Of a stretch of DNA of 29,609 bases, positions 1,913 to 29,174 are shown piece by piece (position 1 is the first letter of the stretch; each line of letters starts with the position of its first letter). The notes under the pieces are model-generated. The model saw only the letters and a program-made list of their open reading frames with translations, was not told the origin of the DNA and did not search any database. The position numbers were made by a program, and so were the translations under genes. The stretch lies in assembly GCF_035285525.1 (NCBI RefSeq), contig NZ_JAYKGW010000237.1, positions 1-29,609 of the forward strand, in the 5' to 3' direction. The stretch is from Okeania sp. (GTDB taxonomy: Bacteria; Cyanobacteriota; Cyanobacteriia; Cyanobacteriales; Microcoleaceae).

Positions 1913-4900
1913 ATGGGTATAGTAAGAGGTGGAGTTCCCACTGAACTAGCTATTCAACTAAGAAATAAATACAATTTGCAAGTATTTGTGGAAACAGGAA
2001 CTCACTATGGAGATACCGCTTTATGGGCAGCAAAACATTTTAACAAAGTAATAACTGTTGAATTTTCCCAGAAAATTTATGATGAAGTGCTGAAAAGGCA
2101 TAGTCAAGTAAAAAATATAGAATTTTTGTTTGGTCATTCAAAAGAACAAATTCAATCAATTGTACCTAAGCTGAAAGAACCAGCTCTATTTTGGTTAGAC
2201 GCTCATTGGTCAGGAAATGTTACTTATGGAAAGGGAGATGAGTGTCCTTTATTAGAAGAGTTAGAAATTATTAATAATTCAGAATTCGATCATTTTATTA
2301 TGATTGATGATGCACGACTTTTTACTTCACCACCACCACTCCCTCATCAAGTTGATGAATGGCCGAATATTAGTGAAGTTATCAAAAAATTAAACTTTTT
2401 GGGTGGAAAAAGTAGATACACAGTTATTGTAGAAGATGTGATAGTTTCTGTGCCCGAATATGCCAAATCTTTAATTGCTAAATATTCTCAAGATATTAAT
2501 ACTAAATTATCCCAAGAATACTCTAAAACTCGTCAGTCTCCAGGTATTATCCAATCATCTAATCCCCAAGAAAAAGATTTGATAGAAATTGTTAATGTGG
2601 TTAATTTTTTTGAAACTGCAACTCAATATTTAGTAGATTTTAGGCTAGAAAAACCAACAAAAAGAGCAACTGATACTATTGTGCGTGTAAGAGGTTGGGT
2701 AGTAGGAAAAAAATCTCCAGTAAAAGCAATAGAATTAGTTAATGGAGGACAAGTATTAGATACTATTCCGGTTGATTGGGAAAGACATGATGTGGCTCAA
2801 GCTTTCCCAAACTATTTAAAAACTGGAGAAAATTCTGGATTTAGAAAATCCATTAATTCCCATCAACTTTCTAACAATAATCAATTCACTTTACAAGCAG
2901 TATTGAAAGATGAAACTCGCGTTCCCATAGCAGAAGTAACATTCAGAAAAAGACCCAACAAACAAAATGCTAAACAAAACATTGCTTTATTTAGAAATAG
3001 TGGAGAAAGTCACGTTATTTCCAGATTTATTAAATCTGACGATATAGTTTTTGATGTGGGAGCTTCGGTGGGAAATTGGACTCAAGAAGTTTTAGCTCAT
3101 CATCCCAATGCTGAAATACATATATTTGAACCCAGAATTAAAGCATACAGAAATCTCGTTAAAAATCTATCTGCACAAATACCGTCAGGAAAAATTATTG
3201 CCAATAATTTTGCTGTCGCCAAAACTGAAGAAATTAAGAGATTTTATGATTATGAAAGTGCCCCTGAATTAAGTACATTTTATAGAAGGGTTGATGTAGA
3301 AAAGCGACCTAAATTTAAGCCTCCAATAGAATTACCAATCTTGACAACTACTATAGATAATTATTGTCATAGTTTAGGAATTAAAAGAATTAATTTTCTC
3401 AAAATAGATGTAGAGGGTAGTGAATTAGATGTGCTTCATGGCTGCGATAAATTATTGAAACAAGGAAAAATAGATTATATTCAATTTGAGTATGGTGGAA
3501 CTTATATTGACTCGAAAACAACCTTAAAACAAGTTTTTAATTATTTGCAAAGTTGCCGATATTTAATTTTTAAGATGCTGCCAGATAGGGTAGATTATTT
3601 ACCTCAATTTTTACCAGAATATGAAAATTATGGCTATGCCAATTTCTTAGCAGTTAATGAACGTTTCAATGTCAATATTTTAGGTGGTAAAAAAGATCAA
3701 ATGCTTGACATTGCTGCTCTATGTCAAGAACATTCTATTAATATCAGTGGTGTAGTACATATTGGAGCGCACATGGGACAGGAACTTGGAGAATATCAAC
3801 GAATGAATGTCAAAAAAGTTTTGTTCATTGAAGCTAATCCAGTTGTGTCTGAACGGCTCCAAAAACAAGTAGCCAATTTACATAATGTACAAGTAGTTAA
3901 TTGTGCAATTACTAATCGTAACGGCATCGTTAACTTACACGTCACTTCTAACGAACAAAGTAGTTCCATCTTACCTCTAAAAGGTCATAGTAATATTTAT
4001 CCAAATATTAAAGAAACTCATCAAGTTAATGTACCTGGAAAGACATTGGATACCTTGTTACAAGAACTAGGAAATCAACCAGAAGAATTCAATTTTTTGA
4101 ATATAGATATTCAGGGTGCAGAATTATTAGCTTTGCAAGGAGCTACGAATCTACTAAAATATGTTGATGCTATTAATACAGAAATTAATTATGAAGAACT
4201 GTATGAAGGATGTGCATTAATTGATGAGATTGATGAATTTTTAGAACAACATGGGTTTGAGCGGGTGGCAACTACAACACCAAATCCTACTTGGGGAGAT
4301 GCTTTTTATATCAGAAAGCCAGTTGTTACTGTCTCTGAACTAGGTTTTAATGGTCGTTTTGGTAACCAGATATTTCAGTATGGTTTCTTGAAAACTTATG
4401 CCCTCAAACATAATCTCCGAGCTGAAACTCCTAATTGGATAGGCCAGTATCTTTTTGGTCACAAAGATCCGCCAATTTCTCGATTGGAAAATTTGCAAAA
4501 AGTTAAGGAAATAATAGATGGAAAAACTGGTTCCCGATCGATACCTGATTCAGAACAACCCTTTAAAGACGTTGACTTCTTTGGTTATTTTCAGCTTCAT
4601 TTTAGCTATTACGCGCCCTACAAAGAGTATTTCAAATCATTGTTTCAACCTATTGGAGAGGTAAAATCAACAGTGGCAGTAGCGATGAAGAAACTCCAGG
4701 AACGGGGAAAAACAATAGTTGGTTTGCATTTACGCCAAGGGGACTATAAACACCTAATGAGGGAAAAACGTTCTGGCATTACTTGTGCTTATGTAGCTCC
4801 TAACGAATGGTATAAAGATTGGTTGGCTGGTTTGTGGGAAACCTTAGAGGAACCAGTTTTATTTATTGCTAGCGATGAAGTTGAAGAAGTTGTCAGTGAT

Positions 4901-5662
4901 TTTGCGGATTATAATCCTGTTACGGTTAAAGATTTGGGTATAGAGTTACCCCAGACACCTGACTATCCAGATTTTTACATCTTGAGTCAATGTGATGTGT
5001 TAGCTATATCAAATAGCTCATTTTCCTTTGCTGCATCTGTGTTAAATGAACGAGGAAAGTTTTTCTTCCGCCCTCATTTTCAAGCCAAGAAATTAATCCC
5101 TTACGATCCTTGGAATAGCGAACCTCTTTTATGGTGGAAGCGAGATGATATTGATATGCAAAAGCTTCTACCTGAAGAAGATCTGAGAGAAGTTGTAGAT
5201 GTCGTCAGATTAGCTAAAACACCATCAGAACATCTAGAGGGATTTTCGCTCGGGAAACCGAGAAAAGGTAATAAAACTGATTCTAGCATTGGAATAAGAG
5301 GTTGGGTATTAGGAAAAACCTCTCCTGCAAAATCTGTAGAATTAGTTAGTGATGGACAAGTATTCCAGACTATTCAAGTTGATATCCAAAGGTTAGATGT
5401 GGCAAGAGCTTTTCCCAGCTATTCAAAAACTGCTGAAAACTCTGGATTTGACAAATATATTAACTTTAGCCAAATCCCTAGTGATGAATTTACTTTACAA
5501 GTTGTGCTAGAAAATCAAATCCGTCTTCCTTTATTAGCAGTTAAGTTAAGGAAAATCATAACTCAAGAATCCCAACCATTATCCCATCTACAGCAATCTC
5601 AGCAAGCTTTTAAGCAATTACAGTCTCGGTTGCAACAGATACAGGCAAAACAAAAGAATTGA
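1913..5662 (+). CDS. Multidomain glycan-modifying enzyme (1249 aa): class I MTase-fold domain, GW module, 2x FkbM-type methyltransferase, GT11-like (alpha-1,2-fucosyltransferase-like) glycosyltransferase, GW module, Q-rich coiled-coil tail
   Basis: ATG at 1913 is preceded by gagga (1901-1905).
- N-terminal domain: VETGTHYGDTA...WLDAHW...IMIDDARLF, a Rossmann MTase-like pattern, possibly CmcI-like.
- GW module around aa 235-345: VRVRGWVVGKKSPVKAIELV...DVAQAFP...ENSGF.
- FkbM motifs: FDVGASVGNW...FLKIDVEGSELDVL (aa ~380-560) and VHIGAHMGQE...FLNIDIQGAELLAL (aa ~615-800).
- GT11 hallmarks: GRFGNQIFQYGF (aa ~814), HLRQGDY (aa ~939), ISNSSFSFAA.
- Second GW module around aa 1100-1215: IGIRGWVLGKTSPAKSVELV...DVARAFP...ENSGF. 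Confidence 0.8.
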   Translation: MGIVRGGVPTELAIQLRNKYNLQVFVETGTHYGDTALWAAKHFNKVITVEFSQKIYDEVLKRHSQVKNIEFLFGHSKEQIQSIVPKLKEPALFWLDAHWSGNVTYGKGDECPLLEELEIINNSEFDHFIMIDDARLFTSPPPLPHQVDEWPNISEVIKKLNFLGGKSRYTVIVEDVIVSVPEYAKSLIAKYSQDINTKLSQEYSKTRQSPGIIQSSNPQEKDLIEIVNVVNFFETATQYLVDFRLEKPTKRATDTIVRVRGWVVGKKSPVKAIELVNGGQVLDTIPVDWERHDVAQAFPNYLKTGENSGFRKSINSHQLSNNNQFTLQAVLKDETRVPIAEVTFRKRPNKQNAKQNIALFRNSGESHVISRFIKSDDIVFDVGASVGNWTQEVLAHHPNAEIHIFEPRIKAYRNLVKNLSAQIPSGKIIANNFAVAKTEEIKRFYDYESAPELSTFYRRVDVEKRPKFKPPIELPILTTTIDNYCHSLGIKRINFLKIDVEGSELDVLHGCDKLLKQGKIDYIQFEYGGTYIDSKTTLKQVFNYLQSCRYLIFKMLPDRVDYLPQFLPEYENYGYANFLAVNERFNVNILGGKKDQMLDIAALCQEHSINISGVVHIGAHMGQELGEYQRMNVKKVLFIEANPVVSERLQKQVANLHNVQVVNCAITNRNGIVNLHVTSNEQSSSILPLKGHSNIYPNIKETHQVNVPGKTLDTLLQELGNQPEEFNFLNIDIQGAELLALQGATNLLKYVDAINTEINYEELYEGCALIDEIDEFLEQHGFERVATTTPNPTWGDAFYIRKPVVTVSELGFNGRFGNQIFQYGFLKTYALKHNLRAETPNWIGQYLFGHKDPPISRLENLQKVKEIIDGKTGSRSIPDSEQPFKDVDFFGYFQLHFSYYAPYKEYFKSLFQPIGEVKSTVAVAMKKLQERGKTIVGLHLRQGDYKHLMREKRSGITCAYVAPNEWYKDWLAGLWETLEEPVLFIASDEVEEVVSDFADYNPVTVKDLGIELPQTPDYPDFYILSQCDVLAISNSSFSFAASVLNERGKFFFRPHFQAKKLIPYDPWNSEPLLWWKRDDIDMQKLLPEEDLREVVDVVRLAKTPSEHLEGFSLGKPRKGNKTDSSIGIRGWVLGKTSPAKSVELVSDGQVFQTIQVDIQRLDVARAFPSYSKTAENSGFDKYINFSQIPSDEFTLQVVLENQIRLPLLAVKLRKIITQESQPLSHLQQSQQAFKQLQSRLQQIQAKQKN

Positions 5663-5721
5663 TTATTCTAGGAAGTTTGTCTACCACCAAATATTTAGGG
5701 TTTGGTGAAAAAGTCGGAAAT

Positions 5722-5814
5722 TAGGGAGTAGGGAGTAGGGAGTAGGGAGTAGGGAGTAGGGAGTAGGGAGTAGGGAGTAGGGAGTAGGGAGTAGGGAGTA
5801 GAGAGTAGGGAGTA
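5722..5814. repeat. Heptamer tandem array (TAGGGAG/GGGAGTA), about 13 copies, STRR-like
   Basis: Direct reading: tagggag repeated head-to-tail from 5722 to 5814, with one variant unit (gagagta) near 5800. Intergenic, downstream of the CDS ending at 5662. Confidence 0.95.
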
Positions 5815-6146: not shown

Positions 6147-7832
6147 CTAATGAACTTTTGCTACCTGAAGTAATTTTGATAGTAAGTCAATATTAATGAC
6201 TACATCTAAATCTCTATTTTTTGGTAAATCCTGTCTGCTCCTAGAAGATTCACCTATCATATAATAGTGTTCTAAATTGCAGTGATTAGCAGTTATATAG
6301 TAGCAATTTCTCAGAGCATCAGGTCCAAATAACTCTATAATCTTAGTACCAGACTGACAGAATACTATATTAGTAAGTGCTGCACCATGAACTGCAACTA
6401 TAACTTTGGCATTGGCAAACAAAGAAACTTGCTCTGCAACTGAAGTAGAAGAGAGAACTACAGTCTGAAAACCAAGTGTACTTAAAAATTCAATTACCCG
6501 ATCTTCATTAACAAGACGACGCACATCACTGTCTTTTCTACTTATGTAAATACGCTCTTGATATTTTGTTGATTTAACTTGATTTTTTAATGGCATTAAC
6601 TCTCTTCTAATAAAGTCACAATTCCATTTTGAAGGAGCTGCCAGAGGTAAGGATGGTACAACTAATTTATCAGCTATAATATGATGATTTTGATAACTTT
6701 CTATAACTTTTTCTTGAGGAATACCTAAAAAAGTTAATATTTCTTTTTGAAATCTTTGTTGGTAAGAATTAACTATAAATTTATCTACATAACCTAAATC
6801 TATACCTCCTTTGAAGAGCAATTCCAAGCGAGAAATTACATCAAATATCCAATGGTAATAATTATACCCCCACCGAGATGATAAAAATACTGCTGTTCCA
6901 TCTAAATTTAGAGCTGGCGGTAAGTTTTTTGTTGACATTAAGTCAATAATATCAGGTTTTCTGAACATCCTTTTGGTTAAAATTTCATCTTCTGAGTCAG
7001 TCACAACTACCCCCCAAGAATCATTGCTCCAAACTCTTCCTTTAGGAACTAGCATAAGAAAATTATTTACATAATGAGAAGTTTTAATACAAAAGTTTTG
7101 ATGAATGTTTTTATCTACAGTTAAAGATGGGTTAAAGTAATTAGGATTGGAGAAATTAATCTGTGTATAACTTACCCGATATTTTTCATTTTGGTTATTG
7201 TTAGGAAGCTCTAGAAATTTGCCGATATCTTTACTTAATACAACTGGTATATTTGGATATTCTTCAGGGTTTTGTTCAGCTATTTTACAGTAGAGAGCTA
7301 TAGCTTCTTCAATTAATCCTTGTCTCCGTAATGCTTTAGCTAAACTAGAGTAATATTTAACTAATAAGTTGGGCTTTAATTGAAAAGCAGTTTGATATGA
7401 TTTGACAGCTTCTGATAGTTTTCCTTTTTTTAAGAAACAATCACCTAAATGTTTATATCCACTGGCAAATTCAGGGGATAACTCAACTGCTTTTTGGAAG
7501 AAAATTAGCGCTTTTTTAACATTTCCTTTTTCGTAAAAAGCTAATCCTAAATCATAGTTAAACCAAGCAACATTAGGGTTTAGTTTTAATGCAGATTTAT
7601 AAGTCTCTATTGCTTGTTCAAATTTACTTAACTTGAAGAAAGCATTTCCTAAATAATAATAAGACCAAGGTGAGTATGGATTTAGCTTTAAAGCAAATTG
7701 ATATGCAGCGATCGCTTCCTCAAATTTACCATTACGCATCAGTCTATTGCCATTTTTCATTTCCTCAGCAGATGTTACAGAAATCATTTGGCGATTATTT
7801 TTGAGCCAAGTTCCCTGTTGATTATTTTCCAT
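6147..7832 (-). CDS. TPR-repeat protein fused to a DUF563/GT61-like glycosyltransferase (561 aa)
   Basis: The N-terminal ~190 aa carry about 5 TPR units (AIAAYQFALKLNPYSPWSYYYLGNAFFKLSKFEQAIETYKSALKLNP...). The C-terminal half has GT61/DUF563 signatures YYHWIFDVISRLE and VHGAALTNIVFCQSGTKIIELF. Confidence 0.8.
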   Translation of the reverse strand: MENNQQGTWLKNNRQMISVTSAEEMKNGNRLMRNGKFEEAIAAYQFALKLNPYSPWSYYYLGNAFFKLSKFEQAIETYKSALKLNPNVAWFNYDLGLAFYEKGNVKKALIFFQKAVELSPEFASGYKHLGDCFLKKGKLSEAVKSYQTAFQLKPNLLVKYYSSLAKALRRQGLIEEAIALYCKIAEQNPEEYPNIPVVLSKDIGKFLELPNNNQNEKYRVSYTQINFSNPNYFNPSLTVDKNIHQNFCIKTSHYVNNFLMLVPKGRVWSNDSWGVVVTDSEDEILTKRMFRKPDIIDLMSTKNLPPALNLDGTAVFLSSRWGYNYYHWIFDVISRLELLFKGGIDLGYVDKFIVNSYQQRFQKEILTFLGIPQEKVIESYQNHHIIADKLVVPSLPLAAPSKWNCDFIRRELMPLKNQVKSTKYQERIYISRKDSDVRRLVNEDRVIEFLSTLGFQTVVLSSTSVAEQVSLFANAKVIVAVHGAALTNIVFCQSGTKIIELFGPDALRNCYYITANHCNLEHYYMIGESSRSRQDLPKNRDLDVVINIDLLSKLLQVAKVH

Positions 7833-8565: not shown

Positions 8566-9813
8566 TCAAAGCTTGCTTAAAATTAATATATCTTGACCAC
8601 TAACGTATCTCTTTCGACCAGACCATGAACCATAATACTTATTGATTACACTCAAACCAGATTCAGATACCCATTTTAGTAACAAAGACTCTTTATAGGC
8701 AATAGCAACTTCTGGTTTAATAAGGTCAATTGTAAAACATCCATTCAACTCATGCACAAACTGAAAGCTACTTTTCCCTTCACTGATTAAATTTTCTGAT
8801 TCTTGATTAAGTAAAAAACAACTACACAAGCACTTTCCGCCTGGCTTCAATACTCTATATATCTCCTCTAAATAATGTCGTACTTCCTCAGTTTGCATAT
8901 GAGTAAATACAGAGGTCAAAAATATGAAATCAAAACTTTTATCTTCATAAGGAAAAATAAAATCTTTTGCTTCTATATTTCCACCAGGGTTGTAGTGATA
9001 GTTATATATATTCACTAAACAGAAATTGAAATGAGGACGGCGTGTTGATATTTCTTGTTGAGGCCACTTAATAAATCTAGCCATAATCTCGAAACCTTCA
9101 TAACTACCTGGAGGTTTTAAGTAGTGAGCTAAACCATAAGCCATTCTTCCTAAACCACATCCAACTTCTAGAACCCGATCTGTTTGTTTTAATCCTACTA
9201 ATTGGATAAAGTAACCTAGGAAGGCAAAAGAGTTCCTCACAAATGCCCCATTTTCTCCACCGCCGCCTGCCCACTGAAGATACTGTTGACTGGGGAGCGG
9301 TATAGAAGATTGGAGCAAATTTACTAAAATAGAACCTTCATACCTACCAAACAAAGGTGTCAAAATAACTAGAGCATCTTGCCAATTTTGTTGTTTCTGA
9401 TTAAGTGGTAATTTAATCAAAAATCCGGCCTTATCAACATTCTTGAAGTTGGGAAAGGCTTTTTTTAGATGGAGGCTATCCCGTCTTAATTCTAGTTCAA
9501 AATTCTGTATTTCTTCACCTGCAATAGAAAGTTTAAAGTTATCAAGTAAATAATCCTCAAATGAAACTACCCATCCTTCAATAAATAAAACTTGATTTTC
9601 AATGGCTACTTTTTGCAGAGAACCAGTAGTTATTAATAGCTGATTTTGTATGATTTGATTATTCTTGTGTTCTATAGCTATCTGATTTTCTAAATCAGAC
9701 TTGGACTTGAATTTATTTAATTCAGCTTTAAGTTGAATTAGTCTCATTTTTGATGAATCCAATTCTGACCTAATACTTGAAAGTTTATCTGATGTATTTT
9801 TTGTGTTTGACAT
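8566..9813 (-). CDS. Coiled-coil, GWV variant-B module and class I SAM-dependent methyltransferase (415 aa from the ATG)
   Basis: The ORF track starts at a TTG (9843). The first ATG is at 9813 (MSNTKNTSDK) and is preferred.
- N-terminal coiled coil: LSSIRSELDSSKMRLIQLKAELNKF.
- Variant-B module: LFIEGWVVSFEDYLLDNFKLSIAGEEIQNFE...KAGFLIKLPL.
- MTase motif I VLEVGCGLGRMA, acidic FDFIFLTSVFTHM, and LKPGGKCL.
Paralogous to the C-terminal halves of the CDSs at 22612 and 27327. Confidence 0.8.
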   Translation of the reverse strand: MSNTKNTSDKLSSIRSELDSSKMRLIQLKAELNKFKSKSDLENQIAIEHKNNQIIQNQLLITTGSLQKVAIENQVLFIEGWVVSFEDYLLDNFKLSIAGEEIQNFELELRRDSLHLKKAFPNFKNVDKAGFLIKLPLNQKQQNWQDALVILTPLFGRYEGSILVNLLQSSIPLPSQQYLQWAGGGGENGAFVRNSFAFLGYFIQLVGLKQTDRVLEVGCGLGRMAYGLAHYLKPPGSYEGFEIMARFIKWPQQEISTRRPHFNFCLVNIYNYHYNPGGNIEAKDFIFPYEDKSFDFIFLTSVFTHMQTEEVRHYLEEIYRVLKPGGKCLCSCFLLNQESENLISEGKSSFQFVHELNGCFTIDLIKPEVAIAYKESLLLKWVSESGLSVINKYYGSWSGRKRYVSGQDILILSKL

Positions 9814-9883
9814 ATTCAATCTAGTAAAATAAAGTATTAACAATATAATGATTCAAATAGGTAAAATCTCATGCTTTTAAAAT

Positions 9884-10558
9884 TTAATGACCAGAATTAA
9901 CATGACTTATATAAGATTTATTGAGTAAATTTTTGTAAGATGAAAAACTAGATTCTGAACGACCTTCGCCTTTTGTACCTTCAACAATCCAAACATTAGG
10001 ATATCCGTTATCTACTCGATAATTTCCATGACGTTCAATATCTATTAGGCTTGAATGTTGGCTTTTTCCATACTCACAAAATACTATATTTTGCCATCCT
10101 AAATGACTCAGTAAAGATTGCAAAAAATCTTGGGAATAAAGAAATTGATGACCCCATCCATGAAAAGCCCGATTGATAGATAATGTAGAATCAATTCGTC
10201 TCTGGGGATTCTTTTCTGATAAATTAAAATGAGTGGAAAGTACCCACTCAACAGCAGGAGTAGAAAGTCTAATTACTCCACCAGGTTTGAGACTTTTCCA
10301 ACCATGATTTAAGAAAGCGATCGCTCCTTCTAGACTTAGATGTTCGAGAAAATGTTCCCCATAAATATATTCCAAACCATTAAAAGGCCAAGGTTTAGTT
10401 ACGTCCATTGTTTGGTCAATCCCATTAAAAGGACGAATATCTACATTCCACCAATCAGGCAAAATATTTTGGGGTCCACAACCCACTTGGACTTTTTTAA
10501 TGCCATTGGGATGGTTTGGGTTCTTACGAGAGGTATTATTTTGGGTTGATAGATTCAT
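9884..10558 (-). CDS. Class I SAM-dependent methyltransferase (Methyltransf_11-like), 224 aa
   Basis: Motif I VQVGCGPQNILPDWWNVDI; EHFLEHL; post-II LKPGGVIRLSTP. Single-domain protein, 40 nt downstream of the preceding minus-strand gene. Confidence 0.75.
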   Translation of the reverse strand: MNLSTQNNTSRKNPNHPNGIKKVQVGCGPQNILPDWWNVDIRPFNGIDQTMDVTKPWPFNGLEYIYGEHFLEHLSLEGAIAFLNHGWKSLKPGGVIRLSTPAVEWVLSTHFNLSEKNPQRRIDSTLSINRAFHGWGHQFLYSQDFLQSLLSHLGWQNIVFCEYGKSQHSSLIDIERHGNYRVDNGYPNVWIVEGTKGEGRSESSFSSYKNLLNKSYISHVNSGH

Positions 10559-10595: not shown

Positions 10596-10772
10596 TTAAT
10601 GACTATTTTTTAAAGGTGGAATTTGATCGGCAGTTAATGTCACAATTTTACCATCTTTGAGAATACTAATTGATTCTCCTAATCTTCGATGTCTTTCTAT
10701 TGCAGAAGCGATCGCTGCTTTTACACCAGAATCAATTTGTTCTGATAATTTACCGGAATTTTTTTTATTCAT
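10596..10772 (-). CDS. Small hypothetical protein (58 aa), candidate partner of the zeta-toxin-like ATPase; not in the supplied ORF track because it is under 60 aa
   Basis: My translation is MNKKNSGKLSEQIDSGVKAAIASAIERHRRLGESISILKDGKIVTLTADQIPPLKNSH*. The ATG (10772-10770) overlaps the upstream gene's stop in ATGAATAA, an 8-nt overlap that suggests translational coupling. It contains a HIP1 site (10708-10715). Confidence 0.5.
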   Translation of the reverse strand: MNKKNSGKLSEQIDSGVKAAIASAIERHRRLGESISILKDGKIVTLTADQIPPLKNSH

Positions 10773-11462: not shown

Positions 11463-11654
11463 ATGTCTAATAATGACAAAAATCCTGAAAATATTCATTC
11501 TGCTACCACCCCAGAAGAATGTGAAAAAATGGAAGAGAAATATGGATGGAAGTTGAAAGATATTAGATTTAATAAAGAACAAGAAATCCTAAAAGTCGAT
11601 TGCGTCTTTGAGGGAGAACAAACATCATTTGAGGATTCGAGATATGACAACTGA
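11463..11654 (+). CDS. Small hypothetical protein (63 aa)
   Basis: ATG ORF divergent from the ATPase gene. Acidic, no recognised motif. Its TGA stop (11652-11654) lies 8 nt after the ATG of the next ORF (11 nt of overlap in total). Confidence 0.45.
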   Translation: MSNNDKNPENIHSATTPEECEKMEEKYGWKLKDIRFNKEQEILKVDCVFEGEQTSFEDSRYDN

Positions 11655-12015: not shown

Positions 12016-12016
12016 G

Positions 12017-12337: not shown

Positions 12338-12368
12338 TAAGTCATATCAAATTTATTCAGTAAACCCT

Positions 12369-12417
12369 AATTATCAATTATTAATTATTAATTGTTAATT
12401 ATTAATTATCAATTATT
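12369..12417. repeat. Heptamer tandem array AATTATY x7
   Basis: aattatc aattatt aattatt aattgtt aattatt aattatc aattatt. The last unit contains the TAA stop (12413-12415, minus strand) of the giant CDS. Confidence 0.9.
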
Positions 12418-21800: not shown

Positions 21801-22404
21801 ATTTCATAAGTACAGGAAAATGTCTGCTGCTGCTGAGTTTGCCCATACAATGTGGGGAGCAGAATGGATATTTCCATTTGATGCTGATGAAGTGATATCT
21901 TCATCAGAACAACCTCTAACAACTATCCTGAGTCAATTTGATCCAAAAGATATTTGTGTTGGTCTGCAACACAGGAACCATATAATCCGTTCATTCTACG
22001 ATTTATCTGAACCTAATCCTCTGAAAAGAATGACTTACAGAAAAAAAGAAGATACTGCTAGTGGTGAGGATTACAGTAAGGTTATAATTCGCTGGCAGCC
22101 TGGTATGGAAATTACTCAGGGACATCACGCTGTCAAATTTAAGGGCAAGAAGCTACCTGTGACAATACTGGGAAAAAATCATGGACTTATTCTGAGACAA
22201 TATAGATATCGTTCTCGAGAACAGATGAAACAAAAAATTATTAATGGAGGAAAAGCTTACGAGATCACTCCAGGTATGAAAGGTATTGTATGGACAAAAA
22301 AGTATACAAAGTATCAGAAAATAGGAGAAAAATTTATTGATAGGTTCTATAATTATGAGATTAATGGAGATTTAGATGCTGTTTACGATCCAGCTTGGGT
22401 ATAA
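18877..22404 (+). CDS. Multidomain enzyme (1175 aa): sulfotransferase, second sulfotransferase-like domain, GW module, class I SAM methyltransferase, GT2-fold (Glyco_tranf_2_4-like) glycosyltransferase
   Basis: - Sulfotransferase 1: 5'-PSB-like IIGAHKCGTASL and 3'-PB-like LLRNPVDRAISHYHH (aa ~1-260).
- Sulfotransferase-like 2: VVGMARSGTTFMARAL ... LTRHPQKVIES (aa ~310-520).
- Short coiled coil: IQEFDSKLAKIKDELQSF.
- GW module: INISGWVLGKNCPVVAIEIV...GFSIDF (nt ~20690-21030).
- MTase: KVLEFGSGASTIWL...FDLIIVDGRDR...LKPGGIIVLDDA (nt ~21090-21520).
- GT: IAGVSMVKDEEDII...FVMLDHLSSDTT...WIFPFDADEV (nt ~21600-22404). Confidence 0.8.
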   Translation: MTLPSFIIIGAHKCGTASLYNYMIEHPQILPAAKKELHFFNWFSKAGNRKKAEGVEWYLSQFPTISNGENFITGEATPDYLVDPHTPQKMFKLLPDVKLIVLLRNPVDRAISHYHHNRGVSKKREPLPFKKAIEKESERLNQEKEKLIFDENYRSLFYKNYSYLERGIYIEQLEIWMNIFPREQFLILKSEDFFDNPNITLKEVFNFLDLPNYELTHQKQDNELSHQPIDRKTRSILAKYFQPYNQRLEEYLAMKFNWDNTVKKLENQENKSLNVAPMNQQVSNKNLDKLSVTKIQQSQKKNQKILRKIDFKYLVVGMARSGTTFMARALRSVGIRCGHEKFFGGSHKPQSLTKKVVKQRMLKHQNLKADSSWLAVPFLNTECVPQDVSIIHLTRHPQKVIESIMAIGFFRRKNYNFYTDYVFLNTPEIKLSDSELTKCCKWYLYWNRKIEESGRQLIHYRVEDPLEKLFDRLNLNYDRYKIFNDTQANSRRTKDRKSINLIEEIEEPDLLKQIVEMAERYGYSIEGTETPSKYSQQVQQENPIKFDKKERDIQEFDSKLAKIKDELQSFSSIAKENAKVQKIEENLVVSGLKSPRIVIEKYDQNIDRIYNELFWGYEIQEIQTKTNNQDTINISGWVLGKNCPVVAIEIVEWSRIVKKVSVNQPDPDVVKLYPEAAQVKEIGFSIDFSVNELPPKFNWLVQAVFADGTQMSIACLQTNDLQPLNIRDTPLLTRKAVEFIKNFFPQKPDAKVLEFGSGASTIWLSKLTKNLTSIEHDGRWFQQVKNQIETQTDCNPVDFKLLPRPYHTICEKFPEASFDLIIVDGRDRMKCFEASIKLLKPGGIIVLDDAQRQKYQQAQDLLKDWHLTKTITNARHTYWWQKPFSEAKLVDKSRRTPSRRSKSRELEKTVIAGVSMVKDEEDIIYYTLAGNYRQGVKKFVMLDHLSSDTTRDEIRRFADDYPEAMVYLIEDRDPLFHKYRKMSAAAEFAHTMWGAEWIFPFDADEVISSSEQPLTTILSQFDPKDICVGLQHRNHIIRSFYDLSEPNPLKRMTYRKKEDTASGEDYSKVIIRWQPGMEITQGHHAVKFKGKKLPVTILGKNHGLILRQYRYRSREQMKQKIINGGKAYEITPGMKGIVWTKKYTKYQKIGEKFIDRFYNYEINGDLDAVYDPAWV

Positions 22405-22611: not shown

Positions 22612-25600
22612 ATGTCTAATCAAAGTCAAAACCAAAAACAATTAACTGAAGCTACACTACCAGCCAAAGTGGAAGTTTTAGACATTACTGTGTCTACAGT
22701 TGATTCCCAAAATTTATGGGGATTTTATATAGATAAACCAGTAAAGGGAGAAAAAATTGACTCGGGCAACCATAAAGTGGAAATAATGGGTTGGGTGTTG
22801 GGGAAAAGCTCTCCGGTGGTAGCGGTAGAAATAATTTGTAATGGTAAGATTCTCCAAACAGTACCTGTTGACCAACAACGCCTTGGTGTGGCTAAAGCTT
22901 TTCCCGGTGTTAAAGAGGCTAAAAACAGTGGGTTTTCTACCACAGTTAGAGTTCCTAAACAGGTATCTTCAAGGGAGTTGTTTCTGCGAGTCAGACTAAA
23001 AGATGAAAGCCTAATTCCTGTGGGAAAAATCAAAATCTGCTCAGTTGCATCTAAATCTATTGAGGAAGTAGATTCAAAAACATCGGCTCAAACTCCGTTG
23101 ACACTACCCAAAGAAATAACCCAACGAACTTTGGGGACAGATTCAACAGTAGAAATAATTTCAGTTCATGTGCCCAAAACAGCAGGGACTACATTTAGAG
23201 AACAGTTGATACAAGCTTATGGAAAAGAACAAGTTTTTCTAGATTACAAAAAGCAACCAGTCGAGGAAGTATTATCAGAAATAAAATCTCTAAATATTAG
23301 AGCTATTCATGGTCATTTTAAGGTAGAAAAATACGACGATTATTTTCCTGAGGCCAAAAGAATTATCTGGATCAGGGAACCTATCAAGCGTTTGATTTCT
23401 AATTATTGGCATCAAGTGACACATTTCCAAAATAGAAAAGTCCTTTTGCATGAAGTTAAATTCGAGAAAAAAAAGTTAATAGAGTATGCTACTCGACCTG
23501 ACATTAAGAATTTGATGTTTAATCATTGTGGCCAAAGAACTCTAGAAGATTTTTGGTATGTGGGAATCACAGAATTTATGGAGGAAGATTTAGTTGAAAT
23601 TCAAACAAATATCGGATGGCCAAAAGTTAAACTTAGTAATCTAAATAAGCACAAATATTCCCAAAGTTATTCAGCTTTTGTGAAAGAGGTATTGTCAGAT
23701 TCAGAAATGATAGAGCAACTAAAAGCTATCAATAGCCAAGATATAGAAGTTTATGAAAATGCCTTAATAATGCGAGCAGAAAGGATAAAAGATCGGTTAA
23801 AAACCCTACAGTCAAATAATCATAATTATCAACAGGAAAACAATAAATTACCAAAACAATTCACTAAAAAACCAGCAAAATCCAAAATTAAAATTCTAGA
23901 TATTAGCTTGTTTGAAGTTGATTTCCAACATCTATGGGGATGTCGTATAGCTAGACCAAGAAAGGAGGGCAATAAGATAAAAATTAGGGGTTGGATTTTG
24001 GGAAAAAGCTCTCGGGTAGTGGCAATAGAAATAATTAGTAAAGGAAGTATTGTCCAAACAGTTCCTATTGATAAAAAACGTCTTGGTGTAGCTAAAGCTT
24101 TTCCCCATGTTAAAGAAGCTAAAAATAGTGGTTTTTTCACAACAGTTAGAGTTTCTCAAGAGGTATCCTCAAACGAGTTGTTTCTGCAAGCCAGACTAGA
24201 AGATAAAAGGCTGGTTCCTGTAGGAAAAATCAAAATCCCCTCAGTTACGTCTAAATCTATTGCTATTGAGGAAGTAGACTCGGAGACATCTGCTCAAACT
24301 CCTTTGGCACTACCCAAAGAAAAAACCGAGCTAGCTCAAGTTGAAATTCAAGATGTGGGTTTGTCCGAGCTTGATAATAAAAATTACTCTAGTTCAAATC
24401 TTGAGACAGATTCAAAAGTAGAAATAATTTCAGTTCATTTGCCTAAAACAGCAGGAACTACATTTAGAAAAATATTAGAGAAGGTTTATACTCCTGAGCA
24501 AGTTTGTAGTGACTACACAGGTTCAAAATTTTCAGAAGAATTATTAACTCAAATAGGTGAACCTAATACTAAGGTAATTCATGGTCATTTTCCAGTAACT
24601 AAGTATCAGAATATGTTTCTGGAGGCGAAGAGGATAATTTGGCTAAGAGAACCAGTAAAACGTTTACTTTCCCATTATATATTTGAGATAAATGTTCAGA
24701 AAAAAAGAAGATTCACAACTATAGAAAAAGAGAAAAAAAAACTCCTTAAATTTGCTAACAAAGACTACATGAAAAACTTAATGTCATACTACGTTAAGGA
24801 CTTACAATATTTTTGGTTTGTTGGAATCCAAGATTTTTTTCAAGAAGATTTAGTGGAACTTCAACAAAAATTAGGATGGTCAAATATTGAATATTCTTAT
24901 GCTAACAAAAATCCATCAAAAATCCATAAAAATTTTGTCAAACAGGTATTAGCAGATACAGAAATGATAGAGCAGCTAAGGGCTATTAATAGCCAAGATA
25001 TAAAAATTTATGAAACCGCTTTAAAAATGCGAGCAGAAAGGAGGAAATATTTGTTGAAAACCCTAGCATCAAATAGTCATAATCACCAACAAGAAAACAA
25101 TAAATTACCAAAACAGTTCTCTCAAACAACACCAAAAGCAAAAGTAGAAATTAAAGATATTAGCGTGTCCAAAATTGATTCCCAACGTCCTATTAAAAAG
25201 TATAGTTTAAGTATTTGTGGAATTATGAAAAATGAAGGTCCATATATCGTGGAGTGGTTAGAATTTCACAAGTTAGTTGGTGTGGAAAGATTTTATCTAT
25301 ATGACAATACCAGTACTGATAATACGATTGATGTTCTGCAACCTTATGTTGAATCTGGAGAAGTTATTTATTATTATTGGCCTCATAAACCAGGACAAAT
25401 GTCTGCTTATTCTCATTGCTTAAAGAATCACAAATATGATTCAGAATGGATAGCATTTATAGATTTAGATGAGTTTTTGTTCCCTACGGTAGCAGATAAG
25501 ATAACAGATATAATAGATGAGTTTTCTCAGGTTTCAGCTCTAGGAGTTAACTGGATGAACTTTGGTACATCAGGACATGAAAAAAAGCCTGAAGGATTGC

Positions 25601-27288
25601 AAATAGAAAACTTTATTAAATGTGCCAAAAAAAGTTTCGGTCCGAATAGACATATCAAATGTATTTTACGGCCAGAAAAAGCAGTTCGTCCACTAAATCC
25701 TCATCAGTTTGTATTTTCTCAAGGTCAGGTAGTCACAGAAAATAAACAACCAATCACAGGACCGATATCGTCAACACATTCTATTAAAAAAATCAGAATA
25801 AATCATTATACTACTCGCTCAAAAGAGGAGAGTATGAAAAAAATGATGCGAGGTAGGGCAACTAAGAATGAACAGAGACCTTGGTCGCATTTTGAATCTA
25901 AAGATAAGATATTTAATGAGGTAGAGGATTTAACGATTCAACGATTTGTTCCTAGACTAAAAATAGCGGTAGAAAAAATTCAGAGGCAAATAAATAAAGA
26001 ACAATTTTTATCGGCAAAACCACAGATAGAAATTAATGAACCTTTGGTAACGGTAGGAAATCTAAATACAGTAGCGACAGAAAACGACCTATTATTGCTA
26101 GGTGGTTGGGTTGTGTCACTCAAGTATGGGTCTGCGGATAGCTTCAAGGTTTCTATTGATGGAACTGAGATATCTAATTTTCAACAGAATGTGGCTATTC
26201 CTAGTCCAGATGTTCAGAAAGTTCGTCGCCAACTCCAGGGTGCAGATAAAGCTCGTTTTCGTATCAAAATACCTCTGGAGCAACAACAACTTGAACAGTT
26301 TCAAGATTCTCTGGTTGTTGTAACTCCTATTTTTGAGGGTAATGAAGGTGCTGCTTTACGAGGTGTATTAAATCCTACTATTAAGACTCCTAAAAAAGAA
26401 TACATTAAACAATTTGGCGATCCTCCCAATAACTTTAGTCATGCTGGTTTTAAATGGTTGGGTCATTTAATCGAAATAGGAGGTCTTCAACCGACAGATC
26501 ATGTTTTTGAGTTGGGTTGCGGGATAGGAAGGGTTGCTTATGCTCTAGCTAACTATCTTAAACCAATAGCTGCTTACGAAGGTATTGATTTTCGGGAAAA
26601 TGCTCTGTCGTTTGCTCAACAAGAAATTACTACCCGAAAACCTAACTTAAATTTCCGGAGGGAAAATGTTCATCACCCAATTTATAACCCCAATGGTGCT
26701 GTACCGGGAGTAGAATTTGTTCTTCCCTATCACAATTTCAGTTTTGATGTAGTTTACATTACGGATATGTTTACTCATCTGCAAATTTTGGAGATGCGAC
26801 ATTATTTGGAAGAAGTTCACCGAGTTTTGAAGTTTGAGGGTAGGTTGTTATTTGGATGTTTCCTGCTTAACTCGGAATCACAAAAATTAATTGCAGAAGG
26901 TCAAGTTTCTCAGAAACTGATTTATGAAGTGGAGGGTGGTTTGACTTTAGATTCAGAGTTACCAGAAAAAGGTACTGGTTTCTCAGAATCTTTACTGTTA
27001 AGTTTAGTAGAAGAGTGTGGGTTAAGGGTAGTAGGAAAATATTATGGTTCTTGGTGTGGACGTAAATCTTTTATTAATCAAGATTTGCTGGTTTTACAAA
27101 AAAAGACTCAGTTATCTCTAGAAAAACAGACAGAACTGAAACAGATATCTGAAACTAAAACTAATGAAACTAAGATGTTGAACTCAAAGTTAGATAACTA
27201 CGAGAAAAATTTAGAACAATATAAGTCTAAATTAGAAAAGTTTCAGATAGAAATTGATGATTTAAAATTTAAAACTAACCAGAATTAA
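22612..27288 (+). CDS. Multidomain enzyme (1558 aa): [GW module + sulfotransferase] x2, GT92/Glyco_tranf_2_4-like glycosyltransferase, GWV variant-B module, class I SAM methyltransferase, coiled-coil tail
   Basis: - GW modules: VEIMGWVLGKSSPVVAVEII...GVAKAFPGVKEAKNSGF (nt ~22680-23040) and IKIRGWILGKSSRVVAIEII...GVAKAFPHVKEAKNSGF (~23880-24240).
- Sulfotransferase-2-type motifs: ISVHVPKTAGTTFRE...IHGHF...IIWIREPIKRLIS (~23140-23790) and ISVHLPKTAGTTFRK...IIWLREPVKRLLS (~24418-25050).
- GT: ICGIMKNEGPYIVEWLEFHKLVGVERFYLYDNTSTDNT...WIAFIDLDEFLFP (~25195-25900).
- Variant-B module: LLLGGWVVSLKYGSADSFKVSIDGTEISNF...KARFRIKIPL (~26040-26340).
- MTase: VFELGCGIGRVAYAL (~26400-27090).
- Coiled coil: ~27100-27288. 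Confidence 0.8.
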   Translation: MSNQSQNQKQLTEATLPAKVEVLDITVSTVDSQNLWGFYIDKPVKGEKIDSGNHKVEIMGWVLGKSSPVVAVEIICNGKILQTVPVDQQRLGVAKAFPGVKEAKNSGFSTTVRVPKQVSSRELFLRVRLKDESLIPVGKIKICSVASKSIEEVDSKTSAQTPLTLPKEITQRTLGTDSTVEIISVHVPKTAGTTFREQLIQAYGKEQVFLDYKKQPVEEVLSEIKSLNIRAIHGHFKVEKYDDYFPEAKRIIWIREPIKRLISNYWHQVTHFQNRKVLLHEVKFEKKKLIEYATRPDIKNLMFNHCGQRTLEDFWYVGITEFMEEDLVEIQTNIGWPKVKLSNLNKHKYSQSYSAFVKEVLSDSEMIEQLKAINSQDIEVYENALIMRAERIKDRLKTLQSNNHNYQQENNKLPKQFTKKPAKSKIKILDISLFEVDFQHLWGCRIARPRKEGNKIKIRGWILGKSSRVVAIEIISKGSIVQTVPIDKKRLGVAKAFPHVKEAKNSGFFTTVRVSQEVSSNELFLQARLEDKRLVPVGKIKIPSVTSKSIAIEEVDSETSAQTPLALPKEKTELAQVEIQDVGLSELDNKNYSSSNLETDSKVEIISVHLPKTAGTTFRKILEKVYTPEQVCSDYTGSKFSEELLTQIGEPNTKVIHGHFPVTKYQNMFLEAKRIIWLREPVKRLLSHYIFEINVQKKRRFTTIEKEKKKLLKFANKDYMKNLMSYYVKDLQYFWFVGIQDFFQEDLVELQQKLGWSNIEYSYANKNPSKIHKNFVKQVLADTEMIEQLRAINSQDIKIYETALKMRAERRKYLLKTLASNSHNHQQENNKLPKQFSQTTPKAKVEIKDISVSKIDSQRPIKKYSLSICGIMKNEGPYIVEWLEFHKLVGVERFYLYDNTSTDNTIDVLQPYVESGEVIYYYWPHKPGQMSAYSHCLKNHKYDSEWIAFIDLDEFLFPTVADKITDIIDEFSQVSALGVNWMNFGTSGHEKKPEGLQIENFIKCAKKSFGPNRHIKCILRPEKAVRPLNPHQFVFSQGQVVTENKQPITGPISSTHSIKKIRINHYTTRSKEESMKKMMRGRATKNEQRPWSHFESKDKIFNEVEDLTIQRFVPRLKIAVEKIQRQINKEQFLSAKPQIEINEPLVTVGNLNTVATENDLLLLGGWVVSLKYGSADSFKVSIDGTEISNFQQNVAIPSPDVQKVRRQLQGADKARFRIKIPLEQQQLEQFQDSLVVVTPIFEGNEGAALRGVLNPTIKTPKKEYIKQFGDPPNNFSHAGFKWLGHLIEIGGLQPTDHVFELGCGIGRVAYALANYLKPIAAYEGIDFRENALSFAQQEITTRKPNLNFRRENVHHPIYNPNGAVPGVEFVLPYHNFSFDVVYITDMFTHLQILEMRHYLEEVHRVLKFEGRLLFGCFLLNSESQKLIAEGQVSQKLIYEVEGGLTLDSELPEKGTGFSESLLLSLVEECGLRVVGKYYGSWCGRKSFINQDLLVLQKKTQLSLEKQTELKQISETKTNETKMLNSKLDNYEKNLEQYKSKLEKFQIEIDDLKFKTNQN
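22655..25200. repeat. Intragenic tandem duplication of a ~1.2 kb GW + sulfotransferase module, with the start of a third unit
   Basis: The unit begins at K(V/I)E(V/I)LDI.. and ends at QQENNKLPKQF. Long, nearly identical DNA stretches are shared, for example gtagaaataatttcagttcatgtgcccaaaacagcagggactacatttaga (23149) versus gtagaaataatttcagttcatttgcctaaaacagcaggaactacatttaga (24418). A third start, PKAKVEIKDISVSKIDSQ (~25132), runs into the GT domain. Confidence 0.85.
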
Positions 27289-27326
27289 AGCAAATATTTA
27301 TTATTGAGTATTCTGCCGAAAAATGA

Positions 27327-29174
27327 ATGAAATCAACCAACCTAACGAATTACAATTTAGAAGAAGTAAAAGTAGAAGTAATTTCGATTCATGTACCAAG
27401 AACTGGTGGTACTGCATTTAAGAATGTTATTAGGCAGGTATATAGTTCAGAGGAAATTTTTTTTGACTATCCTCACAAAGGTCCGATTCGGAATCGGATG
27501 TTAAGTAAACCAAAACCGGAAGTCAAAATAATTCATGGTCATTTTCCGGCTCCAAAATATAATCAAAAATTTCCGGGTTCTAAAAAAATTATTTGGCTGA
27601 GAGACCCGATTAAACGGTTGATTTCTCTTTACTTTTTTTGGAAAAGTTGGCAAATATTAATAGCAAATGATGAGCAAAGTTTAAAAAATAATCAAGAAGC
27701 TAGTTTGAGTTTTATCGAATTTGTTGAACAACCGGAAATGCAGAATCTAATTAAGTTAAATTTTCTGCAAAATGAGCGGCTAAAAGATTTTTATTGGGTG
27801 GGTATTCAGGATTTTTTTGCTGAGGATTTACATCAATTATCTGTAATGTTAAATTGGGCAGATTATGAGTTAGAAACTCAAAAAAGTAATCCATACCCAG
27901 AATATAAGTTGTTAACAAAAGAAGTATTATCGAATCAAGAAATAGTTGATAAAATATCTGCTATGAATCAGGAGGATATAGAAATTTATCGAGAAGCATT
28001 AAGTTTGCGGGTGCGGCGTCAAAAAACTTCAGAGATAAAATACTATATTCAAAATAACTCTGGAAAAAAAAATATTATCCAGAAAAAAGGGAGAATTAAT
28101 TGTTTACTTACTTGGGGTTCTATTGATCGGGTAATTGTTAAAAATCAAGTTTTACGTTTATCTGGTTGGGTTGCTTCTCTGGATGCTGGTATGGTGCAAG
28201 GTTTTAAAGTTTCTGTTGGGAATCAGGAGTTTAGTTTCTTTGAACAAACTTTGAATATACCTAGTCCAGATATTGAGAAGGTTCACTCTAGTTTATTTGG
28301 TGCAGGTAATGCTAGATTCCGTCTAAAAATACTTTTAAATAAACAAAAAATTAATCAAATAAAACATTCATTAATTTCTGTAATTCCTCTGTTTGAAAAA
28401 GGTGAGGGTATAGTTATATTGACTGCATTGACGCCTATTTTACCACTGCCAGATCGGAAATATCTAAAAATGATTGGAGAAGATAGTGCTCATCAGTTTA
28501 TTTATCATTCTTTCAAGTTATTAGGAAGTTTAATTCAGAGATTAGGTTTACAACCAACAGACCATATTCTTGATGTTGGTTGTAATGTTGGTAAAGTTGC
28601 TTATTGCTTAGTTCATTATTTAGAACCTTCTGGTCGTTATGAGGGTTTTGATATGGTAGAAAATTTTATTTCTTGGACTCAAAGGGAAGTTACTACTCGT
28701 AAACCTAATTTTAATTTTAATTGGCATAATATTCATCATCGTCTCTACAATTATACAGGCAAAATATCTGCTAATAATTTTATTTTTCCTTATCCTGATG
28801 TTAGTTTTAATTGTGTTTGTGTTTCTCGTTTATTTACTCATTTACAAGGTTCAGGAGTTGGTCATTTTCTTGATGAAATATATAGAGTTTTACAACCAGG
28901 GGGTAGATGTTTATTAATCTGCTTTTTAGTTAATTTGGAAGCTGCAGAGTTGATTAGTAAGGGGAAGAGTTCTCAACAGTTTATTTATGAAATAGAGGAT
29001 GGTTTGACTATAGATATTAATTTGCCGGAGAAGGGAATTGGGTTTAGGGAGAATATACTATTAGAATGGGTGGAGGAACGAGGATTTAGTGTTTTAGAAA
29101 GAGCTTATGGTTCTTGGTGTGGTCGGACTTCATCTATTAAGGAAGATTTGTTGGTTTTGGAAAAAAGTTTTTAA
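27327..29174 (+). CDS. Sulfotransferase, GWV variant-B module and class I SAM methyltransferase (615 aa)
   Basis: Starts 38 nt after the previous stop, so co-transcription is likely.
- Sulfotransferase: ISIHVPRTGGTAFKN...IHGHF...IIWLRDPIKRLIS (~27370-28010).
- Variant-B module: LRLSGWVASLDAGMVQGFKVSVGNQEFSFF...NARFRLKILL (~28100-28400).
- MTase: ILDVGCNVGKVAYCL...LQPGGRCL (~28450-29174). Confidence 0.8.
   Translation: MKSTNLTNYNLEEVKVEVISIHVPRTGGTAFKNVIRQVYSSEEIFFDYPHKGPIRNRMLSKPKPEVKIIHGHFPAPKYNQKFPGSKKIIWLRDPIKRLISLYFFWKSWQILIANDEQSLKNNQEASLSFIEFVEQPEMQNLIKLNFLQNERLKDFYWVGIQDFFAEDLHQLSVMLNWADYELETQKSNPYPEYKLLTKEVLSNQEIVDKISAMNQEDIEIYREALSLRVRRQKTSEIKYYIQNNSGKKNIIQKKGRINCLLTWGSIDRVIVKNQVLRLSGWVASLDAGMVQGFKVSVGNQEFSFFEQTLNIPSPDIEKVHSSLFGAGNARFRLKILLNKQKINQIKHSLISVIPLFEKGEGIVILTALTPILPLPDRKYLKMIGEDSAHQFIYHSFKLLGSLIQRLGLQPTDHILDVGCNVGKVAYCLVHYLEPSGRYEGFDMVENFISWTQREVTTRKPNFNFNWHNIHHRLYNYTGKISANNFIFPYPDVSFNCVCVSRLFTHLQGSGVGHFLDEIYRVLQPGGRCLLICFLVNLEAAELISKGKSSQQFIYEIEDGLTIDINLPEKGIGFRENILLEWVEERGFSVLERAYGSWCGRTSSIKEDLLVLEKSF

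Follow-up and report, generated by a model that had tools for sequence, protein, structure and literature searches.

Fused sulfotransferase, methyltransferase and glycosyltransferase proteins in a cyanobacterial island with no linked export genes

The contig of an Okeania species analyzed here, whose entire 29,609 bp are referred to as the window, encodes eight proteins in which sulfotransferase, methyltransferase (MT) and glycosyltransferase (GT) domains are for the most part strung together into long polypeptides, and it raises the question of which glycan these proteins might make, on what acceptor, and how the product would leave the cell. Among bacteria, sulfated glycans are rare and characteristic of cyanobacteria, and to our knowledge synechan is the only one with a resolved biosynthetic pathway. 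The blooms and mats of Trichodesmium, Okeania and their relatives are ecologically important, and the polymers on the surface of these organisms bind metals and influence colony shape. A preliminary description of this DNA had proposed an assembly line of tethered domains for an O-methylated and sulfated glycan or a glycoprotein decoration. The answer that we favor, with modest confidence, is a cytoplasmic and modular line for the assembly and tailoring of a methylated, sulfated, deoxyhexose-containing glycan, namely a polysaccharide, that is exported by unlinked genes. The island and its relatives provide a concrete and conserved gene set with which the methylated, sulfated glycans of these organisms can be traced.

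Domain composition of the eight proteins

The eight long open reading frames (ORFs) encode proteins of 1249, 561, 425, 224, 1989, 1175, 1558 and 615 aa (p1249 to p615, named by length) and lie where the preliminary description had placed them, with lengths that also agree except for the third, whose 425 aa count from a TTG start and whose previously reported 415 aa count from the first ATG. Whole-protein and segment-wise Pfam scans against the curated cut-offs reproduced the earlier tally of five sulfotransferase, eight MT and seven GT domains in these ORFs, with 17 of the 20 catalytic domains scoring above cut-off, and bore out all domain-family assignments when borderline and sub-threshold scores are included. 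Although the eight genes cover 86% of positions 1913-29174, the earlier statement that nearly all coding capacity is catalytic is too strong, as by our own domain boundaries catalytic domains account for only about two thirds of the residues. The remainder consists of tetratricopeptide repeats (TPRs, ~840 aa), nine immunoglobulin-like (Ig-like) modules (~850 aa), coiled-coil segments and a disordered region of ~220 aa. The TPR arrays and Ig-like modules had been overlooked previously, and the former are the chief argument for the glycoprotein alternative weighed below.

Five domains can be assigned to the 3'-phosphoadenosine-5'-phosphosulfate (PAPS)-dependent sulfotransferases, the second one of p1175 being borderline. 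They occupy residues 1-285 (Sulfotransfer_1, 76 bits) and 280-570 (Sulfotransfer_3, 28.5 bits versus a cut-off of 27) of p1175, residues 150-425 and 555-855 of p1558 (Sulfotransfer_2, 47 and 31.5 bits) and residues 1-255 of p615 (Sulfotransfer_2, 30.8 bits), the families tested being PF00685, PF03567 and PF13469. A motif search recovered the PAPS-type motifs quoted previously: all five domains contain the 5'-phosphosulfate loop (KCGTAS, RSGTT, PKTAGTT twice and PRTGGTA), and the R-x-P-x-x-R/K...S 3'-phosphate motif is canonical in four of them, whereas the second p1175 domain has the variant TRHPQKVIES. When protein sequences were compared with the PDB, the first domain of p1175 matched heparan-sulfate 3-O-sulfotransferases (E = 1e-20), while p1249 and p191 (a 191-aa protein taken up at the end) had no match and p1558 only a weak MT match.

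Six of the eight MT domains exceed the cut-off, i.e. the two FkbM domains of p1249 and those of p425, p1175, p1558 and p615 (families tested: FkbM PF05050; class I PF08241, PF13649 and PF13578). The other two, at residues 1-210 of p1249 (Methyltransf_24, 17 bits) and in p224 (Methyltransf_23, 19 bits), are sub-threshold, and both carry a motif I-like sequence. The motif search also recovered the SAM-binding motif I of the MTs. An NCBIfam scan yielded a match to TIGR01444 (fkbM_fam, 158 bits) and nothing beyond generic names. The GT domains comprise a GT11 domain in p1249 (34 bits; PF01531, cut-off 23.9), a GT61 domain in p561 (103 bits), a GT2 domain (58 bits) and two CgeB-like Glyco_trans_1_2 domains (PF13524, 78 and 63 bits) in p1989, a Glyco_tranf_2_4/GT92-like domain in p1175 (40 bits) and a GT92 domain in p1558 (111 bits). 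The sequence HLRQGDY at residue 939 of p1249 corresponds to the HxRRGDY-type nucleotide-sugar motif of GT11, and profile and motif together place this domain in GT11, the α-1,2-fucosyltransferase family. A Kyte-Doolittle scan over 19 residues returned one single value above 1.6, a peak of 1.67 that coincides with the first strand of the GT2 domain, and predicted no membrane-spanning stretch in any of the proteins, as had been judged earlier by eye; all eight enzymes are thus predicted to be soluble.

The modules are arranged as follows. On the plus strand, p1249 (1913-5662) consists of a Methyltransf_24 (MT24)-like domain (residues 1-210), an Ig-like module (242-348), two FkbM domains (350-590 and 590-805), the GT11-like domain (805-1105) and a second Ig-like module (1111-1218). 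It is followed on the minus strand by p561 (6147-7832), with approximately five TPRs (residues 20-190) ahead of GT61 (~200-561), by p425 (8566-9843), with a short coiled coil (residues 15-51 by a coil heuristic), an Ig-like module of type B (70-195) and a class I S-adenosylmethionine (SAM)-dependent MT (200-425; Methyltransf_11, 54.7 bits), by the small MT-like protein p224 (9884-10558), in which the motif I-like VQVGCGP stands at residue 23, and by p1989 (12413-18382). The last three genes are again on the plus strand: p1175 (18877-22404) joins Sulfotransfer_1 (1-285), a P-loop sulfotransferase-like domain (285-565), an Ig-like module (615-720), MT24 (722-890) and the GT92-like domain (890-1175); p1558 (22612-27288) reads Ig-like, Sulfotransfer_2, Ig-like, Sulfotransfer_2, GT92, Ig-like type B, class I MT and a C-terminal coiled coil; and p615 (27327-29174) is built of Sulfotransfer_2 (1-255), Ig-like type B (250-375) and class I MT (365-615).

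The largest protein, p1989, starts with approximately 18 TPRs (residues 1-650), followed by an Ig-like module (660-795), GT2 (865-1190) and two GT-B domains (GT4-like, 'CgeB'), the first of which is split between its halves by a Ser/Glu/Lys-rich, low-complexity insert of ~220 aa (residues ~1290-1510) encoded by 168-bp and 75-bp repeats at 13853-14515 (168-bp units at 13984-14399). In an AlphaFold model of residues 1180-1989 the predicted local distance difference test (pLDDT) score exceeds 90 except in the insert, which is predicted to be disordered. Foldseek returned 148 PDB matches to the GT-B domains at E <= 0.001, of which the 50 listed are all GT-B and mostly GT4, with the methylmannose-polysaccharide mannosyltransferase 7qsg and a capsule-synthesis multienzyme among the top ones, and the C-terminal 810 aa are accordingly modeled as two GT4-like GT-B folds. 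Orthologues of p1989 vary in length from 1824 to 2141 aa, the repeat-encoded insert of the protein described here being ~220 aa long.

The Ig-like module, ~95 aa around 'GWV...R.DV...F...GF', occurs in nine copies of two types, the first with five copies (two each in p1558 and p1249, one in p1175) and type B with four (p425, p1558, p615 and p1989); 22729-23055, 2636-2956 and 28074-28451 are example sites. Pfam has no match to it in the window proteins. Structure prediction gave a β-sandwich with a mean pLDDT of 82 and a core above 90, for which Foldseek found only weak Ig-like matches in the PDB (best E = 0.04), too weak to support an identity as carbohydrate-binding module. An exhaustive HMMER profile search detected the module in 2,616 protein clusters, and its best matches were copies repeated in tandem in cell-wall amidases of clostridia and in proteins named 'Ig-like domain-containing', where Pfam calls the same residues Big_7; other matches were multi-domain sulfotransferase, MT and GT2 proteins that resemble those of the window. 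Distant relatives of the module include extracellular tandem arrays (the clostridial amidases and a Dyadobacter protein sorted by the type IX secretion system), and no signal peptide or membrane segment was seen in the Ig-bearing proteins of the window.

Conservation and reshuffling of modules in relatives

Orthologues are present in Trichodesmium erythraeum IMS101, Okeania, Dapis, Microcoleus and Planktothrix, with the modules split or fused in other ways; the T. erythraeum island lies around 2.24-2.26 Mb of NC_008312. In the closest reference genomes (T. erythraeum IMS101, Dapis and other Okeania) p615 is 69-79% identical, and p615-like proteins of ~615-636 aa with the same sulfotransferase-Ig-MT layout recur in relatives at 50-79% identity; no other architecture of the island is as conserved. 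A 1249-aa orthologue of p1249 with 79% identity is encoded in a Trichodesmium metagenome-assembled genome (MAG), and orthologues of p224 (220-224 aa), which adjoin FkbM-GT11 proteins in relatives, were found at four loci (L020, L021, L023 and L027). The order p1989, p1175, p1558-like, p615 is kept in Okeania, Dapis and Trichodesmium, but module content varies. Orthologues of p1175 (924-935 aa) run Sulfotransfer_1-Ig-MT24-GT92-like without the second sulfotransferase domain, and those of p1558 are mostly GT92-Ig-MT alone (642-701 aa), so that p1175 and p1558 of the window, unlike their closest orthologues, carry extra sulfotransferase modules. On two metagenome contigs with 80% identity the same region (ST1 to ST3 denoting Sulfotransfer_1 to Sulfotransfer_3) is divided as ST1-ST3-...-Ig-ST2-Ig / ST2 / Ig-GT92-Ig-MT / ST2-Ig-MT. 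On both contigs (L024, 8410-11807; L025, 491-3888) a 235-aa sulfotransferase ORF overlaps in another frame the start of a 919-aa Ig-GT92-Ig-MT ORF, which may be either a real gene split or a common frameshift of a once-fused gene.

A similar picture emerges further afield. The FkbM-FkbM-GT11 core occurs in more than 150 Oscillatoriales proteins (Microcoleus, Planktothrix, Tychonema and others), fused to TPR plus GT92 (with or without GT2), TPR plus GT61, GT4, GT8, GT41 or sulfotransferase. The Microcoleus protein P0171 is FkbM-FkbM-GT11 in its N-terminal part, while its TPR-GT61 C-terminal part is 32% identical to p561 over 531 aa (E = 6e-79), and p1558 shares 54% identity in its GT92 domain with the one fused to FkbM-GT11 in the Microcoleus protein P0163. 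Because homologous modules are fused in other Oscillatoriales, the separate genes of the window are likely to serve one process. The GT2-CgeB-CgeB arrangement was found in more than 200 proteins from cyanobacteria, Proteobacteria and other groups, and together with the preceding Ig-like module it also exists without TPRs in Proteobacteria, Myxococcota and others, sometimes fused to sulfotransferase or MT domains. This type of enzyme is common in related filamentous cyanobacteria. Since the same modules are split and fused variously and stand in other orders across genomes, polypeptide boundaries are fluid and the notion of a fixed assembly line does not hold. This natural series of fusions and fissions reveals which modules work together and so helps to assign functions, and the sulfotransferase-MT and sulfotransferase-GT fusions are potential parts for the engineering of sulfated sugars.

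Direct database homologues carry names that cover only one domain ('FkbM family methyltransferase', 'tetratricopeptide repeat protein', 'GT2 family glycosyltransferase/spore maturation protein CgeB') and are uncharacterized, and no paper describing these fused proteins turned up in literature searches. It is established that multi-module GT/MT enzymes exist and that cyanobacteria have sulfotransferase clusters for extracellular polysaccharides (EPS), in which single-domain genes stand beside Wzx/Wzy. Distinct here are the fusions of sulfotransferase with MT or GT, the recurrent Ig-like spacer, the long TPR arrays, the reshuffling within Oscillatoriales and the consistent lack of linked export genes. 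On present evidence this is not a new principle but a sound lead to a glycan, or glycoprotein, with methyl and sulfate groups in the marine cyanobacteria that form blooms.

Proposed cytoplasmic glycan assembly and its acceptor

A well-supported core is common to the two main readings of the island: GTs extend a glycan in the cytoplasm, which is then O-methylated with SAM and O-sulfated with PAPS. In the favored reading the GT2, GT4-like, GT11-like, GT61 and GT92-like modules would extend the glycan from nucleotide sugars, the FkbM and class I MTs would methylate and the sulfotransferases would sulfate its sugars, the Ig-like β-sandwiches would act as spacers between catalytic units, and the TPR arrays and coiled coils would tether the enzymes to one another or anchor the acceptor. 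The product, most likely containing fucose or another 6-deoxyhexose, would be completed at the cytoplasmic face of the membrane, probably while attached to a lipid carrier in the manner of ABC-transporter-dependent polysaccharides, and would then be exported by genes elsewhere in the genome; such are the reaction order, sugar identities, polysaccharide acceptor and export route that we infer. Genes for sugar precursors occur in relatives, i.e. a DegT aminotransferase and a hexapeptide acetyltransferase in one island, and an epimerase of the GDP-mannose-dehydratase family, NeuB and a CMP-sugar synthetase by a Microcoleus orthologue.

ABC-transporter-dependent glycan assembly makes established use of soluble proteins that combine several GT and MT modules, and cyanobacterial orthologues of the terminators in such systems have been mentioned (PMC11231755); the earlier suggestion that tethering substitutes for a gene-by-gene organization therefore gives way to a known strategy. 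Like the polymerase-terminators WbdA/WbdD of E. coli O9a, WbbB of K. pneumoniae O12 and ORF6 of K. pneumoniae O7 (PMC11231755, PMC3482155), the island has soluble or peripheral cytoplasmic proteins that unite several GT and MT modules, coiled-coil segments, and a distribution over single- and multi-module proteins that differs between strains; the GT-MT and GT-sulfotransferase-MT fusions without membrane segment in the window correspond to the polymerase-terminator scheme of a multi-module soluble GT with a modification enzyme. Unlike these systems, the island is larger (20 catalytic modules in 8 proteins), has no linked wzm/wzt (or kpsMT) or priming GT in the window and five related islands, carries PAPS sulfotransferase modules in place of a kinase, and features TPR arrays, repeated Ig-like spacers and short coils inside the enzymes.

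With the xss cluster for synechan in Synechocystis PCC 6803 the island shares the presence, in a cyanobacterial locus, of sulfotransferases (PF00685, PF03567 and PF13469 types) and many GTs, and sulfation in that system is cytoplasmic and PAPS-dependent (PMC8205485). By contrast, the xss cluster has single-domain enzymes along with Wzx, Wzy and polysaccharide co-polymerase genes and regulators, whereas the island has fused enzymes, many MTs and no genes of these three export classes. A Wzx/Wzy cluster of the xss type was rejected for the window, which has neither membrane proteins nor matching Pfam families. Trichodesmium has been noted for its abundant sulfotransferases (Maeda 2021, PMC8205485), and the link to sulfated cyanobacterial glycans drawn in the preliminary description is consistent with the literature (PMC8205485).

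Several observations weigh against a polysaccharide product. First, no flippase, polymerase, co-polymerase, ABC transporter, outer-membrane exporter or priming transferase was found in the window by Pfam scan and hydropathy, as had been stated previously, nor in ~115 kb of related islands with Pfam-annotated genes (T. erythraeum, Okeania SIO2B3 with ~36 kb, an ocean metagenome contig, a Trichodesmium MAG and a Microcoleus genome; loci L002, L009/L027, L020, L022 and L023), which hold more enzymes of the same kinds, so that the polysaccharide route rests on unlinked genes outside the DNA scanned. Second, coils within the enzymes span only ~30-45 residues in a heuristic scan, and the long coiled-coil ORF at the start of the window shows no catalytic domain in the part present. 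Third, TPR arrays typically bind proteins, and one distant GT2-CgeB homologue adjoins flagellar export genes. On the other hand, the missing linked export genes are unremarkable, because cyanobacterial EPS genes are scattered over genomes (PMC4594306) and the five related islands lack them as well; their absence is true of the window but not special to it.

These same observations bear on a serious but less likely alternative, cytoplasmic protein O-glycosylation. Here at least one substrate protein, such as a pilin, a component of the S-layer or sheath or a different secreted protein of the cell surface, would be recognized by the TPRs of p561 and p1989. The GTs fused to these arrays would initiate glycans on the bound protein, and the remaining modules would extend, methylate and sulfate them before secretion. 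Both p561 and p1989 place a TPR array N-terminal to the GT in one soluble protein. FlmG is laid out in the same way, with a TPR domain that binds flagellin and a GT domain that transfers the sugar (PMC7591256). Unlike FlmG- and OGT-type enzymes, the island has GTs of the GT61 and GT2/GT4-like kinds, many extra tailoring modules and a host without flagella. The arrays (~18 repeats in p1989, ~5 in p561) most resemble consensus TPRs and the repeats of OGT and SPINDLY. Of the homologues found, the TPR-bearing ones are nearly all cyanobacterial (an exception being P0311 from Bdellovibrionota), and the sampled proteobacterial GT2-CgeB homologues have no TPR array. The FkbM-GT11 core is elsewhere fused to GT61 and GT41-family domains, and characterized members of GT61 and GT41 include protein O-GlcNAc transferases. 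In Duganella sp. CT11-25 (L028, 1-24431) a 1476-aa GT2-CgeB homologue of p1989 (P0372) lies in a transporter-free block of GT2, GT4, MT and DUF4214 genes that directly adjoins flhA and flhB, which suggests a flagellin glycosylation island. Also in favor of a protein acceptor are the NeuB and CMP-sugar synthetase genes next to the Microcoleus orthologue, the consistent absence of lipid-carrier and export genes from the window and related islands, and the presence of Gtf3 and GtfC, which act in serine-rich-repeat protein glycosylation, among the GT-B structural neighbors.

However, no candidate substrate protein was found, these cyanobacteria have no flagella, and the flagellar context is one distant case that is not repeated in Prosthecodimorpha or in a Bdellovibrionota genome. 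The GT4 structural matches are generic, and TPR or TPR-like bundles are also found in polysaccharide terminators (O4 ORF7, PMC11231755), so that the arrays could merely assemble an enzyme complex. More speculatively still, the alternative might extend to a widespread and so far undescribed cytoplasmic protein-glycosylation machinery of filamentous Oscillatoriales in which TPRs pick surface or secreted proteins and combinatorially fused, Ig-spaced GT, MT and sulfotransferase modules build sulfated, methylated O-glycans; if true, it would be the first case of a bacterial system that makes sulfated glycans on proteins.

An intracellular polymethylated polysaccharide akin to the mycobacterial methylmannose and methylglucose polysaccharides, which would be cytoplasmic and need no export genes, is improbable. 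The solubility of all enzymes, the lack of linked export genes, the eight MT domains and the best GT-B structural match of p1989 (7qsg) speak for it, but 7qsg is only one of many near-equal GT4 matches, such polymers are not known to involve anything equivalent to the five sulfotransferase domains, and cyanobacterial sulfated glycans are extracellular (PMC8205485).

That the long ORFs are artefacts, either metagenome-bin chimeras or pseudo-fusions from sequencing errors, is hardly credible: the contig is short and terminates in repeats, the exact p1558, p1989 or p615 sequence was not found in another assembly, and the p1175 and p1558 modules are differently split in relatives at 80% identity, but p1249 is identical in an independent Logan assembly, the module order is the same in the complete T. 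erythraeum IMS101 genome, cultured Dapis BLCC and Okeania hirsuta, p1989 has full-length orthologues in Okeania and cultured Dapis, and intact proteins of like kind with 1600-2050 aa are encoded in more than ten genomes. Assembly chimerism, named previously as what would overturn the description, was rejected on the identical p1249 and the orthologues in a complete genome and cultured strains, and the giant ORFs are real.

Contig ends and small intervening elements

In relatives including T. erythraeum, the p615 orthologue is followed downstream by a protein of 1600-2050 aa with a sulfotransferase, one or two MTs and two GT2 domains. The contig probably stops just before this gene because of a terminal tandem repeat, a 76-nt unit present 4.8 times in the last 356 bp (29254-29609) and reaching the contig end.

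Beyond the eight genes, the window holds a coiled-coil ORF, a zeta-toxin-like gene and a 135-aa ORF. The coiled-coil ORF (2-1321, plus strand) lacks its 5' end, which lies beyond the contig start, and runs in frame without a stop from position 2, giving at least 439 aa, most of which is flagged by a heptad heuristic. It contains 282-bp internal repeats with 90% identity, and its G+C content is 0.42 at 1-1321 versus 0.30-0.40 across the remaining window. Only weak matches to SMC and HmpF coils were found for the part present, and its likeness to the pilus-motility protein HmpF probably comes from composition alone. Relatives encode in the same position a coiled coil fused to an MT (428 aa in L022, 772 aa in L020), and a role as scaffold or ruler partner of the enzymes is possible.

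The gap between p224 and p1989 contains a zeta-toxin/AAA_33-like P-loop protein of 191 aa identified by Pfam (10765-11340, minus strand), overlapped by a 58-aa ORF without family match (10596-11340 region, minus strand), and, in the 1-kb gap that remains before p1989, a 135-aa ORF (11608-12015, plus strand) with only a sub-threshold DUF2947 match. PADLOC reported nothing meaningful for the zeta-like gene and its neighbors. Since Uma2 and MNT/HepT toxin-antitoxin-type genes fill the equivalent gap in Okeania SIO2B3 (L027), the zeta-like gene is probably a passenger, and the gap appears to be a variable site where small mobile modules insert that have nothing to do with the glycan genes. Promoter and terminator scans of the window gave counts at chance level. 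Two short tandem repeats flank coding sequence, (TAGGGAG)x13 in the intergenic DNA just after p1249 (5722-5814) and (TAATTAT)x7 overlapping the last few bases of p1989 (12368-12417), both of which we take to resemble the short tandem heptamer repeats of filamentous cyanobacteria.

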